Origin: an uncultured delta proteobacterium | GTDB lineage: Bacteria; Myxococcota_A; UBA9160; SZUA-336 | Length of the DNA stretch: 64,000 bases | NCBI GenBank assembly: GCA_963704165.1 | Contig: CAVPHD010000012.1 | Coordinates: forward strand, 64,001-128,000 | Direction of reading: 5' to 3' | Notes under the pieces: model-generated | Seen by the model: the letters and a program-made list of their open reading frames with translations, nothing else | Told to the model about the DNA's origin: nothing | Databases searched by the model: none | Made by a program: the position numbers and the translations under genes | Shown: one piece after another, positions 50,185 through 61,998 of the stretch | How the letters are laid out: every line of letters starts with the position of its first letter | How positions within the stretch are numbered: the first letter of the stretch is position 1

Positions 50185-52463
50185 CTACTGCCTCGACATC
50201 GCGACGCGGTCCTCGGCCGCAGGGTCGCGGTACGGCGCGCCTTCGGCCTCGATCACGACCTGCGCCACCAAGCCGTCCGGTACCGTGAAGCGGCCGGGGC
50301 ACGCGTCGGTGATGGGCGGGCCGGGCTGATACCCGACGGCGAACCCGCCCGATCCGTACGTGACCGGCGTCGTGCGCGCGATCGCTCCCTCGCCGACGGG
50401 TACGCCGTCGTAGAAGAGCGCGAGGTTGCCGCGGAACGGCCCGGTCGGATTGAACTCCGCGCGAGCGACGACCCGACCCGCGGGAAGCTCGACGCTGGCC
50501 GAGATGGTCGTGCTCTGCATGCCGAGCAGGTTGTAGACGAAGTGGAGCCGACGGCCTTTCAGATACAGTGAGTACCCGCCCGCGCTCCCGCCGTGCGCGA
50601 CGAGCGTCCCGTCGATGCTCGCGCCCGCCGGGACGTTCAGGTGCGCTTCGATGATGAACTTCCGATTGCGCAGGTTCGGCGCCACCGGCCCGGGCAGCCG
50701 GCCGATGCCCGCGTGGTACACGTAGCGATCGCGCCGGAAGCGCCGGTCGCCGAAGCGTCCGGGCTGGTTGTTGAGCGGCAGGACCTGGTTCCGCTCCGCC
50801 TCCTTCCACCAAAGATCCTTCAGCTCGGCGAGCTTCTCGGGTCGCGACGCCGCGAGGTCGCGGATCTCGGCGAAGTCCTCGGCGACGTTGTAGAGCTCCC
50901 AGACGTCCTCGTCGAAGGGCTTCGAGACGTCCGTGCCGTCGTACACGGCGATGCGCGCGGGATGGAAGACGACCGCCTTCCAGCCGTCGTGGTAGAGCGC
51001 GCGCGATCCGATCATCTCGTAGTACTGCGTGACGTGGCGCGACTTCGCGCTCGCGTCGGCCAGGGTGTGCGCGAAGCTCGTGCCGTGCATCGGGCTCTGG
51101 ACGACGCCGGCGATCTCCTTCGGCGGCTCGACGCCGAGCAGGTCGAGAATGCGTCGGCACGACGTCGACGACGTGCACGTACTGGTGACGCGTCTCGCCG
51201 CGGGCGGCCGAGCCGCGAAGGCCAGTGGACGATCAGCGGATCGCAGACGCCACCCTCGTGCGTGTCGCGCTTGAAGCGCTTGAGCGGCGTGTTGCCGGCC
51301 CACGCCCAACCCCACGGGTAGTGGTTGTGCGCGTGCGGTCCGCCGAGGTCGTCGATCCGGCGCAGGTTCTCCTCGAGGCTCTCGGGCACCATGTTGAAGA
51401 AGAACGCTTCGTTGAACGAACCCTTCGGTCCGCCCTCGGCGCTCGCGCCGTTGTCGCTCATCAGGATCACGAGCGTGTCGTCGAGCTCGCCGAGCTCGTC
51501 GATGAAGTCGACGAGGCGCCCGACTTGCGCGTCGGTGTGCGTCATGAAGCCCGCGTACACCTCCATCATGCGCGCGTACAGACGGCGCTCGTCCGCGGAG
51601 AGCGATTCCCACGACGGCACCCAGGCAGGTCGCGCGCGAGAGCTCGGTCCCCTTCGGCAGGAGCCCGCTCGCGACCTGACGCGCGAAGACCTGTTCGCGC
51701 CAGTGGTCCCAACCCGCGATCGAAGCGGCCGCGGTAGGGCTCGATGAACGAAGCCGGCGCCTGGTGCGGCGCGTGACACGCGCCCGGCGCGACGTAGAGC
51801 AGGAATGGCTTGCGTTCGTACGTCGCGCGCAGGTCCTTCACGTAGGAGATCGCGTGGTCGATCATGTCGTCGGTGAGGTGGTAGCCCTGCTCCGGCGTGC
51901 GCGGCGGATCGACCTGATGATTGTCGTGAACGAGCTCGGGGTGGTACTGGTCGGTCTCGCCGCCCATGAATCCGTAGAAGCGCTCGAAGCCCGCGACCGA
52001 GCGGCCACTTGTCGCGCGGGCTCCCCATCGTCGTCTCGGTCGTCGGCGCCAGGTGCCACTTGCCGACGGCGAAGGTCGCGTAGCTCTGCTCGCGCAGGAT
52101 CTCCGGCAGAAAGCCGTTCTCCTTCGGGATCACCGCATCGTAGCCGGGGAAGCCGCTCGAAAAGTCCGCGATGCGGCCCATGCCGTTGGCGTGGTGATTC
52201 CGCCCGGTCATCAGGCACGCGCGCGTCGGCGAGCAGAGCGACGTGGTGTGGAAGTTCGAGTAGCGCAGACCGCCGGCGGCGAGGCGATCGAACGTCGGCG
52301 TCGAGAGGTCGGATCCGTAGCAGCCGAGCTGCGCGTAGCCCACGTCGTCGAGCACGACGATCACGATGTTCGGCGCGCCTTCGGGCGACTTCGGTAGCTC
52401 AGGCCACCACGAAGTCGACTCCGCGAAGGTTCGACCGATCTTTCCCCCGAACGGCTTCGGCAT
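50185..52463 (-). CDS. Arylsulfatase; about five frameshifts in 51150-52000
   Basis: PNIVIVVLDDVG, LCSPTRACLMTGR (CxPxR), GKWH, SDNGAS. Confidence 0.9.
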
Positions 52464-52546
52464 CACGTCTCCCCAGGCGAATTCGTGCCGCGAAGTATCC
52501 CACAGATCGACGCCGCGGAGCCGCGATTCGGGGGTAGACTGCGAGG

Positions 52547-56980: not shown

Positions 56981-57571
56981 ATGAACCCCGAATCCCGAAT
57001 TCCCAGGCTGTCGATCGAGGAGGCGAAGCTCGAAGCCGAGAAGATCGGCCTGCCGGCGCAGATGGCGGAGCTCTCGGTCTTCCGCGTCTTGCTTCGCCAC
57101 CCCGACCTCGCCAAGGCGATCTTCGGATTGCTCGCCGGCCTGCTCTTCCGCGGAAAGCTCGATGCCCGCCTGCGCGAGTTCGTGATCATGCGCATCGGTT
57201 GGGTGACGGGATCCGAGTACGAGTGGACCCAACACTGGCGTGTGGCGACGCAGATCGGGATGAGCGAGGCCGAGCTGCTCGCGGTTCGCGATTGGCGGAA
57301 CGCCGGGAACCTCGGCCGGGCCGAGCGCGCGGTGCTCGCGGCCACCGACGAGACGCTCGAAGTCGGCGCGATCTCGACCGGGACCTGGCGCGAATGCGAG
57401 GCCACCCTCGGAGGTCCCGAGAACCTGCTCGAACTCGTGGCGGCGATCGGGAACTGGCGGCTCTTCTCGACGCTCCTGCGCTCGCTCGAGATCCCGCTCG
57501 AAGACGGCGTGATCGGCTGGCCGCCGGACGGGCTCGTGCCCACCGACCCGTCCGTCGCGCGCGATGTCTGA
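56981..57571 (+). CDS. Carboxymuconolactone decarboxylase/AhpD-like family protein
   Basis: LDARLREFVIMRIG..YEWTQH. Confidence 0.85.
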   Translation: MNPESRIPRLSIEEAKLEAEKIGLPAQMAELSVFRVLLRHPDLAKAIFGLLAGLLFRGKLDARLREFVIMRIGWVTGSEYEWTQHWRVATQIGMSEAELLAVRDWRNAGNLGRAERAVLAATDETLEVGAISTGTWRECEATLGGPENLLELVAAIGNWRLFSTLLRSLEIPLEDGVIGWPPDGLVPTDPSVARDV

Positions 57572-58133
57572 GCCGATTCTCGCCGACACGCACTTCGACA
57601 CCGTGCTCGTCGTCGGAGCGCACCCCGACGACGCCGAATACTTCGCCGGCGGAACGCTCGTCCGGCTCGCGGACTCGGGCGCGAGGATCGAGCTGGTCGT
57701 CTGCACCGACGGCGCGCTCGCGAACGACGAGACGCTTCGAGCCGAGCTCGCGCTGGCATTGCGCCGGATCCGTCCCGACCTGGTCCTGACGCACGATCCG
57801 CGGACGCTCTGGGCCGTGTATGGGGGCCGGGCGCATCCGGGTCACTCCGACCACCGCGCGGCGGGACAGGCCCTGCTCGATGCCCTGTATCCGCGCGCGG
57901 CCAGCCCGAACTTCTACCTGGAGCAGCTCGAGGCGCAGGGCGTGGAGCCCTGGTACCCGCGCGAGGTCTGGCTCTTCGACACGGCAGAACCGGACCTGCG
58001 CATCGACGTGTCGTCGAGCTTCGCGCGCAAGCTCGACGCGCTTCTCTACGGCGCACGCGCACTCGGGGAATCGGAGCCGTTCGCCCGGCTCGTGCTGCGC
58101 AAGCCGAAATCGCCCTGTGCGGACGCCCGCTGA
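57564..58133 (+). CDS. PIG-L family deacetylase, apparently internally deleted
   Basis: AHPDD and HSDH present; RxxE helix and C-terminal HxSQ absent. Confidence 0.75.
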   Translation: MSEPILADTHFDTVLVVGAHPDDAEYFAGGTLVRLADSGARIELVVCTDGALANDETLRAELALALRRIRPDLVLTHDPRTLWAVYGGRAHPGHSDHRAAGQALLDALYPRAASPNFYLEQLEAQGVEPWYPREVWLFDTAEPDLRIDVSSSFARKLDALLYGARALGESEPFARLVLRKPKSPCADAR

Positions 58134-59106: not shown

Positions 59107-59940
59107 ATGAATTCGACAAGGACTCGGGGCGCGTCGGCGGCGCTCGTCATTGCGACCCTGGGACTGCTCGCAGCCGTCGGTCACGCTGCGGATCCGGCCC
59201 CCGCGCAGCCGCCAGCGGTGTCCGCAGAGGACGGCGAGATCGATGACGATGCCGTCGCGCTGCTGGAGCGACTCGGCGCGTTCCTCGCGGCGCAGCCGCG
59301 CTTCAGCTTCGAGGCCGAACTCGCCTACGAGGTCGTGCAGGCCGACGGGCAGAAACTCGAGTTCGGCTCGTTCCGTCGCTACACGGTCCGGCGTCCCGAG
59401 CACCTGCGCATCGACGAACGGCGCCGCAGCGGCGGCGCGCGCGAGCTGTACTTCGACGGCGATCTGCTCACGGTCTGGATCCCCGACGAGAAGGCGTACG
59501 CGCGGGCGAAGCTCACGAAGCGCCGCGACCTGGACGAGACGATCGATCTGGTGCGCGGCGCGCTCGACCTCCAGGTCCCGCTCGGCGATCTGCTGCGCAG
59601 CGCGCCGCTCGCTCGGATCAAGGAGACCATGATCACGGCCTACGTCGTCGGCCGGGAGAACTTGGGGGGAGTCGCCTGCGATCACGTCGCCTGGCGCAGC
59701 GACGAGATCGATGCCGAGGTCTGGATCGCAGTCGGCGAACGGCCGCTGCCTCAGCGCCTCGTCATCCAGTACCGGGTGCTCGACGGGCAGCCGCGCTTCT
59801 CCGCACAGTTCGCGAGCTGGTCGCTCGAGCCCGACGTGGCGGAGGCGACCTTCCGCTTCGCGCCGCCCAATGACGCCGAGCGAGTGCGGTTCTCGGTGCG
59901 CGGACGCGACGTGCAGCCGACGGAGGCAAACGAACCATGA
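59107..59940 (+). CDS. DUF2092 (LolA-like) periplasmic protein
   Basis: Signal peptide; DGQKLEF, VRRPEHL, FDG, PLGDLL, CDHVAWR, VWI..PLP. Confidence 0.8.
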   Translation: MNSTRTRGASAALVIATLGLLAAVGHAADPAPAQPPAVSAEDGEIDDDAVALLERLGAFLAAQPRFSFEAELAYEVVQADGQKLEFGSFRRYTVRRPEHLRIDERRRSGGARELYFDGDLLTVWIPDEKAYARAKLTKRRDLDETIDLVRGALDLQVPLGDLLRSAPLARIKETMITAYVVGRENLGGVACDHVAWRSDEIDAEVWIAVGERPLPQRLVIQYRVLDGQPRFSAQFASWSLEPDVAEATFRFAPPNDAERVRFSVRGRDVQPTEANEP

Positions 59941-60740
59941 AGAACCGATCGATCGCGCGGACCCTGGCAATGGCCTGCGTCGGCCTGTGGCTATGCCTTC
60001 TCGCCCAAGAGGTCGATGCGCAGCGGCGCGGCGGCGGGGGACGTGGCGGCGGGGGCGGGCGTTCGATCTCGCGCTCGGGCCCCGCGGCGGGAGGCGGCTT
60101 CGGCGCGCAGCGCTCGGCGCGGCCCTCGCAGCACCCGTCGTGGTCGCAGACGTCCGGCGCCGGAGCGCGCCCCTCCACACAGCCGAGCCCGTCGACGCGG
60201 CCGACCACGCCCGCGACGCCGACCACCCGGCCGACCACGCCAACCGCGCCGACGACGCGGCCGACCACGCCAAGTGACAAGCGGCCGAGCGACTCGCGGC
60301 CGAGCCAACGGCCTGGGGAGGGCGAGAATCGACCCGGCGACTCCGAGAACCGCGAGGACTGGCAGCAGCACATCGACGAGTCTCGCGAAGATCGCCAGAA
60401 GTACGCCAACAACGCGCGAAACGACTGGCAGGACTTCTACGAAGAGGGCGGGTACTACTACGGCGGGTATTACGGCGGGTACTACGGGTACCCACCCGTC
60501 GTGATCGTGCACTACGACGATCACGACGAGGACTGGGAGGCGGCGCTCGCCGGCTTCGCGCTCGGAACCGCGCTCACCTCGGCTTCGTTCAGCTCGATGC
60601 AGACGAGCACGCAGTGCTCGCTCTCCGAGGTCACCGTGAACGAGGTGAAGTACTTCAAGTGCGGATCGACCTGGTACAACCGGGTGATCGAGGGCACGGA
60701 AGTCCAATACGTGATCGTGGGCGCGCCGCCGGGCTACTGA
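59937..60740 (+). CDS. Secreted low-complexity protein (Gly/Arg, Pro/Thr repeats, acidic segment, YYGG repeats) with small Cys-containing C-terminal domain
   Basis: Signal peptide; TRPTTP repeats; YYGGYYGGYYGY; YFKCGSTWY..YVIVGAPPG. Confidence 0.8.
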   Translation: MKNRSIARTLAMACVGLWLCLLAQEVDAQRRGGGGRGGGGGRSISRSGPAAGGGFGAQRSARPSQHPSWSQTSGAGARPSTQPSPSTRPTTPATPTTRPTTPTAPTTRPTTPSDKRPSDSRPSQRPGEGENRPGDSENREDWQQHIDESREDRQKYANNARNDWQDFYEEGGYYYGGYYGGYYGYPPVVIVHYDDHDEDWEAALAGFALGTALTSASFSSMQTSTQCSLSEVTVNEVKYFKCGSTWYNRVIEGTEVQYVIVGAPPGY

Positions 60741-60752
60741 GTCGGCGCACGC

Positions 60753-61172
60753 GTGACGGCCCGATCGCTGCGCTGGCTGGCTCCGGCCCTGCTACTCGCC
60801 GTAGCCGCGAATCAGATCTGGCTGTCGTTCCGTGCCGACCTGACACCGTGGTGTGGCGGTGGCTTCGGGATGTTCTCGACCGTCGACGGCCGCTTCGCGC
60901 GCCACCTGCACGCCTTCGCGCTGAGCCCGTCGCTGCGGGTCGAGCTCGCGATTCCCGTCGAGCTTCGAGAGAGCGCGCTGGCCGCGGTCGCGCTGCCGAG
61001 TGAGTCGCGGCTGCGGGCGTTCGCCCGGGAGCTCGAGCCATACGCCGCTTCGGACTTCGAAGCGCCAGACACGATCCGGATCGAGGTCTTCACCCGACGC
61101 GTCGACCCCGGGACGCTCGCCCCACGCGGAGTGCTGCTTCGGGCTCTGGAGGTCCCGCTTGCGCGACCTTGA
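60753..61172 (+). CDS. SdpA-like/HTTM-partner membrane-anchored protein
   Basis: N-terminal TM then LTPWCGGGFGMFST; overlaps the next gene. Confidence 0.5.
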   Translation: MTARSLRWLAPALLLAVAANQIWLSFRADLTPWCGGGFGMFSTVDGRFARHLHAFALSPSLRVELAIPVELRESALAAVALPSESRLRAFARELEPYAASDFEAPDTIRIEVFTRRVDPGTLAPRGVLLRALEVPLARP

Positions 61173-61998
61173 CCCGGTCCTGCTCGCAGCACGGCTCTCG
61201 CTCGCGGATCTGGCGCTGCGCCCGATCGGGGTCGGCTGGTTGCGGCCCGGGCTGCTTGCGCTCGCCGTGCTCGGTCTGGTCCTGCCATCGCTGGCGAAGC
61301 ACCCCGGGTTCTGGCTCGCGCTCGCCGCGCTCACCGCATTTCGTGTCGTCTGGACCTGGCCGCTGGCCGACAACCACGCCTACCTGCTCGCGTACTGGTG
61401 TCTCGCGCTCGCGGTTTCCACGCGCGAAGTGGACCCGCGGCCGGCGCTCGCCTGGAGCGGTCGCATGCTCCTCGGCCTGGTCTTCGCGCTCGCGGTGCTC
61501 TGGAAGGCGATCTCGCCCGACTACCTCGACGGCCGGTTCTTCCGCGTGACGCTCGTGACCGACGAGCGGCTCGCATCGTACGCGGTCCTGATCGGCGGAC
61601 TCGACGGCGAGGAGCTGAGAGAGCGGCGTGAGCAGCTGACCCGGCACGTCGATGGCGCGCCGATCGCGGCAGCGCTTCTGCCGCTCGAGCCCGCACGATT
61701 CCGCGCGGCGGCGTGGCTCGCGACCTGGGGCGTGATCGCCATCGAGGCCCTGCTCGCGCTCGCCTTCCTCGGGTCACCCCGCCGCGCCCTCGCGCGAATT
61801 CGCGATCCACTCCTGCTCGCGTTCTGCTCGGTCACTTATCTTTTCGCGCCGGTGAGCGGCTTCGGCTGGTTGCTGATCGCGCTCGGCGTCGCGCAGACCG
61901 ACCCCGAGAGCTGGCGGACGCGCGCGTCGTACTTGGGGGTCTTCGGGCTGGTCTACCTCTACCGCGAGATCCCCTGGGCGCTGATCGGCGTGGGCTGA
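61159..61998 (+). CDS. HTTM-domain (SdpB/vitamin K-dependent carboxylase-like) membrane protein
   Basis: DNHAYL, RMLLGLVFALAVLWKAISPDYLDG, IAIEALL; TTG 61159. Confidence 0.6.
   Translation: MRDLDPVLLAARLSLADLALRPIGVGWLRPGLLALAVLGLVLPSLAKHPGFWLALAALTAFRVVWTWPLADNHAYLLAYWCLALAVSTREVDPRPALAWSGRMLLGLVFALAVLWKAISPDYLDGRFFRVTLVTDERLASYAVLIGGLDGEELRERREQLTRHVDGAPIAAALLPLEPARFRAAAWLATWGVIAIEALLALAFLGSPRRALARIRDPLLLAFCSVTYLFAPVSGFGWLLIALGVAQTDPESWRTRASYLGVFGLVYLYREIPWALIGVG

Follow-up and report, generated by a model that had tools for sequence, protein, structure and literature searches.

Does the four-gene locus at positions 59107 to 61998 of a contig stretch from an uncultured delta proteobacterium (assembly GCA_963704165.1, contig CAVPHD010000012.1; 64,000 nucleotides, hereafter the window, meaning the whole stretch analysed) encode an enzyme that modifies a secreted protein made from the same cluster? 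A first-pass annotation of the DNA, made from the letters alone, had proposed four co-oriented genes forming such a system, and all four open reading frames (ORFs) are present on the forward strand where it placed them. Gene A (59107 to 59940; 277 residues) encodes a member of DUF2092 that begins with a Sec-type signal peptide; gene B (59937 to 60740; 267 residues) a secreted, DUF6515-like protein that is the candidate substrate; gene C (60753 to 61172, with a GTG start; 139 residues) a small partner of D; and gene D (61159 to 61998; 279 residues) a multi-pass membrane protein predicted to adopt the membrane-domain fold of the gamma-glutamyl carboxylase that depends on vitamin K (GGCX). The A and B ORFs overlap in the ATGA at 59937-59940, B and C are separated by 12 nt, and D overlaps C by 14 nt, its start being most plausibly the TTG at 61159 with GGAGG 6 nt upstream. 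In the analysis below, C and D together are likely a split GGCX-like enzyme, and we tentatively favor, at somewhat less than evenly balanced confidence, the whole reading in which B is its substrate and the chemistry is Glu gamma-carboxylation, by analogy with GGCX.

The enzymatic part of the argument begins with D. Its family comprises 1,243 representatives at E 0.001, and conservation was taken from an alignment of D with 133 near-full-length proteins out of its best 150 matches (n = 134). The Atlas places D beside unnamed clusters from Myxococcota, Acidobacteriota, and Verrucomicrobiota, with an HTTM lead only below 0.9; among titled records the closest, 70% identical in D, comes from an uncultured member of the Myxococcales, and D gave a single marginal plasmid match. 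Neither B, C, nor D has a significant Pfam or NCBIfam match, and PDB sequence searches with D returned none. The first-pass annotation had likened D both to HTTM proteins such as SdpB and to GGCX, and the two likenesses fared differently. None of the 134 D-family members matches Pfam HTTM (PF05090) at E 0.1 or the NCBIfam SdpA and SdpB models, nor is there an HTTM match in the source genome, and membership of those families was given up. The likeness to GGCX is supported in the fold and in the equivalents of the catalytic residues. The predicted model of D, with a predicted local distance difference test score (pLDDT) of 94.2, retrieved GGCX at rank 1 in Foldseek (probability 1.00, TMq 0.50, E 0.084), and the structural overlay that had been suggested bore this out: upon realignment (VIA), all 12 listed GGCX entries matched the model at Z 12.1-13.3 and root-mean-square deviations of 3.8-4.2, with 208-218 residues aligned to GGCX residues ~59-320, the next unrelated protein reaching Z 8.6. 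A wide fold search with the same model placed GGCX only at rank 16, with Z 7.2. As an aside on this superfamily, 53 of 121 sampled phylum genomes carry HTTM-family genes, many of them full-length and GGCX-like and several per genome (L093-L122).

Residues were mapped in two steps, the D profile being aligned with 19 bacterial full-length GGCX-like proteins (hhalign probability 72%, E 3e-5, 111 columns) and the bacterial profile then with human GGCX (E 4e-87; numbering offset 31). By this route R102, K116, Y/F122, E196, C223, T226, and F235 of D correspond to R204, K218, W223, D263, H287, N290, and F299 of GGCX, respectively. According to section 13 of PMC12647623, K218 of GGCX is the base for the quinol, N159, H160, and Y395 are ligands of the Glu carboxylate, and F299 stacks CO2. 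The motifs quoted in the first-pass annotation (DNHAYL, AVLWKAISPDYLDG, and GFGMFS), together with the acidic tract, are all in the sequence, and the conservation of the motifs is more than chance would give: in D, D71, N72, and H73 are kept in 96, 99, and 98% of the 134 proteins and K116 in 98%, with E196 at 95% and F235 at 93%. N72, H73, K116, E196, and F235 are retained in 30/30 D proteins linked to B and in 34-36 of 36 other D proteins. The claimed parallel with the GGCX lysine motif survives for its Lys, Asp, and Gly, and fails for its spacing and its Trp, since D has K-x4-D-[YF]-x2-G, one residue longer than the K-x3-D-W-x2-G of GGCX, with Phe or Tyr at the W223 position. We predict, on the strength of the model, that D has the GGCX membrane-domain fold and its catalytic residues. 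The family also gave weak matches to MauE (3/134), DoxX_3 (2/134), and LMF1 (1/134), with a best E of 0.002, and many B proteins have two Cys in their C-terminal repeat, as might suit a quinone-linked redox protein of the DoxX/MauE or lipase-maturation-factor type that helps to fold or oxidise B, in place of an enzyme that forms a carbanion. Against such a role stand the fold, the five conserved positions that match GGCX, and the absence of any invariant Cys from the D and C alignments, and we regard it as very improbable.

Gene C would supply what D lacks. SdpB is of the HTTM type and SdpA is DUF5819-like, and C had been described as SdpA-like; 0/117 C-family members match Pfam HTTM, the NCBIfam SdpA and SdpB models, or the DUF5819 model, and C is not a member of any of these. 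C consists of an N-terminal helix, a conserved PW-x-GGGFGMF loop, and a small three-stranded alpha/beta domain, and Q21, W33, and G37-F41 are conserved in at least 90% of the 117 sequences. In its predicted model (pLDDT 87.9), the helix and the conserved loop, which is of low confidence, are followed by strand-strand-helix-helix-strand-strand, so that the order of elements, helix-loop-beta-beta-alpha-alpha-beta-beta, is the one found in the following region of GGCX. By profile, Q21 maps to Q374 and W33 to W390, and M40/F41 fall near M401/M402. From these sequence comparisons, C is probably the equivalent of the last GGCX membrane helix, the M401/M402 loop, and clamp A, that is, of the missing lumenal half. 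Three fold searches with the C model brought up no GGCX chain and nothing above Z 4.6 among the matches listed, a result that still allows the relation. Longer proteins were also looked through for a fusion of C with D, and none turned up, which is weak evidence.

The genomic association of C with D is nearly constant. C adjoins D in 65 of 69 D loci (28/28, 12/15, 20/20, 2/3, and 3/3 by batch, a few of the 69 being the same gene in two assemblies); of the four misses, three occur where the contig stops and the fourth sits between ORFs resembling transposases by eye. Linkage of all four genes, which the first-pass annotation had expected, was surveyed in 170 genomes of one Myxococcota class with completeness of at least 85%. 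The D profile matches in 41 of these (37 at E <1e-40) and DUF2092 in 50. A-B-C-D stand together in 22 genomes and B-C-D at a contig edge in two more, which gives 24 of the 37 D-bearing genomes, and the cassette spans ten family codes of the class when less complete genomes are counted too. The flanking genes vary between cassettes and recur just among close relatives. At one locus (L026:4061-7224), C-D and A-B still adjoin but are divergently transcribed. The expectation was borne out only in part, as C+D and A+B also occur separately: 23 of the DUF2092 genomes have no D match and five have both genes apart. A+B and C+D are separable modules, stably joined in one lineage. Two oddities of A and B were seen along the way, namely A-B-A-B tandems in which the B genes are of two types and C and D are missing (L185 and L186) and a locus in which A and the C-terminal part of B share one frame, by fusion or frameshift (L216:1382-2818).

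A is a clear DUF2092 member (Pfam PF09865, E 9e-58, 195.6 bits against a cut-off of 21.2), present in a single copy in the genome, with a Sec signal peptide read from sequence and hydropathy; a PDB sequence search with A gave no match. DUF2092 proteins are described, in PMC4520260, as having a LolA-like fold that keeps the hydrophobic LolA-like cavity. The start of B lies at or within one codon of the stop of A in 21/21 A+B loci checked. B itself has no Pfam match; its relatives are DUF6515 members, six of 16 passing the DUF6515 (PF20125) cut-off and two more matching weakly, and the Atlas gives a 0.93 lead to a cluster with 14% DUF6515. Behind the signal peptide lies a disordered part rich in RGG and in Pro/Thr/Arg, followed by acidic helical repeats of 11 residues that end in DFYEE, a glycine-zipper-like stretch, and one DUF6515-like beta repeat. 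The features that the first-pass annotation had picked out in B were partly sustained. Its Glu/Asp-rich tract exists (60342 to 60542, forward strand, residues ~136-202), with a mixed charge (7 Glu, 9 Asp, and 5 Arg/Lys in residues 136-200) and an 11-residue periodicity (0.29 at lag 11 vs 0.12 ± 0.01 in shuffled sequences); Glu stands at positions 137, 140, 148, 151, 169, 170, 198, and 201, and DFYEE at 166-170. Its hydrophobic segment corresponds to the glycine-zipper-like stretch, which falls below the transmembrane threshold used. Its YYGG repeats are present but confined to close relatives of the window, and were rejected as a target on account of this lack of conservation. No GGCX-type propeptide was seen in B. 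In the open-access literature, we found no description of a function for DUF2092 or DUF6515 or of a coupling of either to a GGCX-like pair.

If B is the substrate, B proteins linked to C/D should differ from unlinked ones, and this prediction was tested. In a first pass over the 73 residues before the C-terminal repeat, for which 21 rows without an anchor were dropped, the median number of Glu was 6 in linked B (n = 24) vs 2 in unlinked B (n = 15), with Asp at 11.5 vs 9. With a wider anchor, at a loss of four rows, the motif [ED][FYWH][YWAVL][ED][EDKN] was found in 23/23 linked vs 4/31 unlinked B. Scored over the whole mature protein with no segment rule, and with two duplicates and a fused A-B row left out, the motif is present in 26/27 linked vs 6/43 unlinked B, and in a form containing Glu in 23/27 vs 3/43. 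Among held-out genomes, at least four Glu occur in the segment in 4/4 linked vs 0/7 clearly unlinked B, and where a genome has both kinds, linked B has more Glu in six of seven cases, with one tie. Of the six unlinked B proteins with the motif, three belong to genomes with C/D elsewhere (G224, G653, and G306) and one lies at a contig edge. The effect is one of Glu: Asp content (D>=8) gave 1.1 pairs each way on the A tree and does not track linkage. General proteome acidity was considered as its cause and rejected, because the Glu fraction of A does not differ (0.071 vs 0.065, p 0.16) and linked B is the richer in Glu within the same genome. Linkage changes at least six times on the A tree without the motif ever going the opposite way, and the A and D subtrees show matching groups. 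Because a Glu-rich stretch of B tracks the presence of the enzyme across genomes, the glutamates of B would be its likely targets, and the proposal that B is the modified partner gains from the covariation of its Glu-bearing motif with C/D linkage (tree-corrected p 0.125-0.25). An earlier view of ours, in which A+B were unrelated passengers and B an improbable substrate, was revised after this covariation was seen. Two individual cases may be recorded here. An unlinked B of one genome (G653:C12; L197; L173) has a very acidic, Trp-rich tract and C+D of the linked subclade lie on another contig, a situation consistent with action in trans. In G599 (L210:2119-3046, L198), a frameshift interrupts D close to the C-terminal third, which may be an assembly error, and the unlinked B has EFYQD, with Gln in place of the motif acid, where its sister G224 has an intact D and EFYDD; this comparison is anecdotal.

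Each chemical step of the mechanism that we propose is taken over from GGCX. C and D would assemble in the inner membrane as a split, gene-order-swapped enzyme of the GGCX type that uses menaquinol, O2, and CO2, with C completing the active site through its GMF loop. B would meet this enzyme after Sec export, on the outward-facing side of the inner membrane, where N72 and H73 would hold the carboxylate of a tract Glu as N159/H160 do in GGCX. K116, like K218, would deprotonate and activate menaquinol, from which O2 would yield a strong base, and CO2 stacked by F235, as by F299, would then be added. Through the added carboxyls, the 11-residue helix may acquire a face that binds calcium or a surface. 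A would be the likely LolA-like periplasmic partner of B; of all parts of the proposal, this role is put forward with the least support, from the likeness to LolA (PMC4520260) and the tight coupling of A to B. The source genome (84% complete) contains menB, and neither VKOR nor the futalosine family PF02621 was found in it; the menB search also gave ~40 enoyl-CoA hydratase-like matches. Taken as a whole, a dedicated gamma-carboxylation system made up of a minimal two-chain menaquinone-driven enzyme, a secreted Gla (gamma-carboxyglutamate) protein whose 11-residue helix would turn into a calcium-binding face, and a LolA-like partner with which that protein would be exported or presented is possible, and we hold it with considerable doubt. 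B is a candidate substrate from sequence, and what has been observed is the genes, their linkage, the conserved residues of D, and the covariation of the motif.

A number of observations weigh against this proposal, at the level of the enzyme, of the cassette, and of the motif. As regards the enzyme, N72/H73 lie outside the hhalign profile alignment and were equated with N159/H160 by motif and by the structurally aligned range. The profile match of C to bacterial full-length GGCX-like proteins is weak (probability 2.7%, E 0.017, 101 columns in the expected region), the loop of C is four residues shorter than that of GGCX and has no conserved Tyr at the position of the Glu binder Y395, and C is too short to contain clamp B. 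As regards the cassette, C-D occurs without adjoining A-B in 13 of the 37 class genomes, and in Planctomycetota C+D stand without A or B in 9/9 loci, as they do in all loci seen in other Myxococcota; the pair is thus in part independent of the DUF2092 and repeat-protein genes, a circumstance that the first-pass annotation had itself named as telling against it. The solo C+D loci share no recurring substrate-like neighbor. Because C+D occur without A+B and without a shared neighbor, B is not the general substrate of the D family. The B-linked D proteins form one subclade in which C+D-only members are nested, with two changes on the tree.

These facts fit a second reading, in which C+D again make up the split enzyme and act on a small molecule, a lipid, or a protein encoded elsewhere, and A+B share an envelope process in which B is unmodified; A might, for example, carry a lipid product and B bind that product or dock on C. 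The solo pairs keep the same catalytic residues, and the tract of B is an 11-residue amphipathic-type repeat, a pattern known from lipid-binding helices. The hydrophobic cavity of DUF2092 proteins would suit such a role, a preprint (bioRxiv 10.64898/2026.08.19.745780) describes a DUF5819 model in which the substrate channel is blocked and the opening is a different one, and MloH is reported to act on an intermediate of a polyketide synthase-nonribosomal peptide synthetase (PKS-NRPS). This reading does not by itself, however, predict enrichment of Glu and not Asp in linked B, nor that unlinked B should have kept the motif where linked-clade C/D lie elsewhere in the genome (G224 and G653), and we consider this reading doubtful, if only a little more so than a dedicated system. 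On the reading that we favor, A+B would be an older envelope module joined by one D subfamily, and the substrates of the remaining D subfamilies would be encoded elsewhere. Apart from this comparison, a secreted protein of ~95 residues recurs two genes upstream of C+D in two Planctomycetota loci (L142:3811-4089 and L146:7794-8090), and immediately upstream in L143 and L145 are small ORFs for different secreted proteins, all of them possible alternative substrates.

As regards the motif, the pattern was drawn from the linked rows themselves, and a narrower aromatic-aromatic-Glu pattern separates the groups less (17/27 linked vs 7/43 unlinked). In held-out genomes, to which it was applied as a rule fixed beforehand, it was found in 3/4 linked B, below the preset 80% bar, and in 0/7 clearly unlinked B; two linked rows needed a relaxed anchor, one further positive came from the edge of a contig, and a row with A and B fused was left aside. 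Unlinked B proteins of G040 and G664 keep the motif with no C or D found in the genome, three linked B proteins have an Asp-only motif, and one linked B has none. A tree-corrected test on the A tree found six independent pairs, of which 3.4-4.2 agree with the prediction and 0-0.3 run against it, which is not significant. The Glu-motif signal is consistent but not statistically established, and since all linked D belong to one subclade, shared ancestry explains part of the pattern. One may go further and suppose that C+D landed once behind A+B, in a forebear of the class, and were co-inherited, the Glu motif being ancestral and decaying in some lineages for unrelated reasons; the single subclade of linked D, the survival of both pairs alone, and the nonsignificant pair tests are what this history would leave. 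We think it improbable, given that the four genes stay together across the ten family codes while their flanks vary, that the association survives rearrangement at L026, that the A and D subtrees have matching groups, and that the repeated linkage changes on the A tree never ran counter to the motif.

Even with B as the substrate, the base derived from the quinol could drive another reaction, such as carboxylation of Asp like that of MloH, epimerisation, hydroxylation, or processing like that of SdpAB and the linaridin HTTM enzymes. The chemistry of the bacterial relatives known so far is of other kinds, with MloH acting on Asp and SdpAB in processing, which also counts against Glu carboxylation. 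The linkage and covariation of B would be the same, and the missing Y395 equivalent and the Asp-only motifs of some linked B could be accommodated. SdpA and SdpB are needed for processing of a secreted precursor encoded alongside (PMC6818787), and an HTTM protein whose mechanism is unclear is found in linaridin clusters (PMC9927463). Opposed to this are the retention of F235, the counterpart of the CO2-stacking F299, across the D family and the failure of Asp content to track linkage; nor is the missing Tyr of C special, because bacterial full-length GGCX-like proteins lack Tyr at the Y395 position as well. A different reaction on B therefore appears unlikely, though less so than a purely historical cassette.

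The surroundings of the locus add little to the unit. The cyclase and PIG-L-like genes that precede it and the NAD-kinase-like gene downstream were rejected as members because they recur in just 4-5 of 33 loci, all from close relatives. A sigma-70-like promoter was looked for at the cassette and none was found; terminator-like matches are near chance level, and none closes the cassette. The G+C content of the window matches that of the four-gene locus. The PIG-L-like gene (57564-58133), which has a CMD-family gene on one side and a cyclase-family gene on the other, seems internally shortened, profile positions 1-39 alone matching well, and the translation of a sulfatase-like ORF on the reverse strand (51012-52466) seems to switch frame partway, a possible frameshift or sequencing error.

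To our knowledge, no bacterial Gla protein is established, and a search of a limited open-access literature turned up no exception. The function of bacterial GGCX relatives is largely open, the one characterised carboxylating case found cited acts on a small-molecule intermediate, and the chemistry of SdpAB and of the linaridin enzymes is unclear. The cassette pairs a very small enzyme, two chains totalling ~420 residues that the HTTM model misses, with a specific protein as candidate substrate whose residues were chosen by covariation. If the proposal is true, it would give first functions to DUF2092 and DUF6515, a compact CO2-attaching enzyme, and a bacterial counterpart, as yet unproven, of the protein carboxylation of blood clotting.

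Four systems offer themselves for comparison. With GGCX, C+D share the predicted membrane-domain fold, the equivalents of R204, K218, D263, F299, and, by motif, N159/H160, and a resemblance of C, through a weak profile match, to the Q374-M402 loop and clamp A region. They differ from it in being two genes in swapped order, in a total of ~420 residues vs 758 that is too small to include clamp B or the C-terminal domain, in an identity of 11-14%, in having Tyr or Phe for W223 and no conserved Y395, and in that B is without a GGCX-type propeptide. MloH of malonomycin biosynthesis (Law et al. 2018) is likewise bacterial and GGCX-like and is reported to carboxylate an acidic residue; unlike C+D it is fused and acts on an Asp of its PKS-NRPS intermediate, and no PKS or NRPS is among the recurring neighbors of the cassette. 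The sdpABC and yitPOM clusters of Bacillus subtilis (PMC6818787) likewise have a small gene followed by a large one, next to the gene for a secreted protein that carries a signal peptide. The cassette gave no NCBIfam SdpA, SdpB, or SdpC matches, the precursor gene of the cassette lies upstream, B is acidic and DUF6515-like without a long hydrophobic C-terminal peptide, and no immunity gene is among the recurring neighbors; tested as a precursor of this type, B adjoins the pair and its motif covaries with it to the extent given above. No description of the four-gene cassette or of its enzyme family was found in the open-access literature. The closest parallel is in the preprint already cited, which models a pair of DUF5819 and HTTM(-DCC1) proteins as a split GGCX, with MloH as the fused form. 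There, too, adjacent genes encode a small membrane-anchored partner upstream of an HTTM-like protein; C has no DUF5819, D has no HTTM match and no DCC1 domain, and the cassette adds a linked LolA-like gene and a candidate protein substrate. Split GGCX-like pairs have thus already been proposed, and the interest of the cassette lies in its named candidate substrate.

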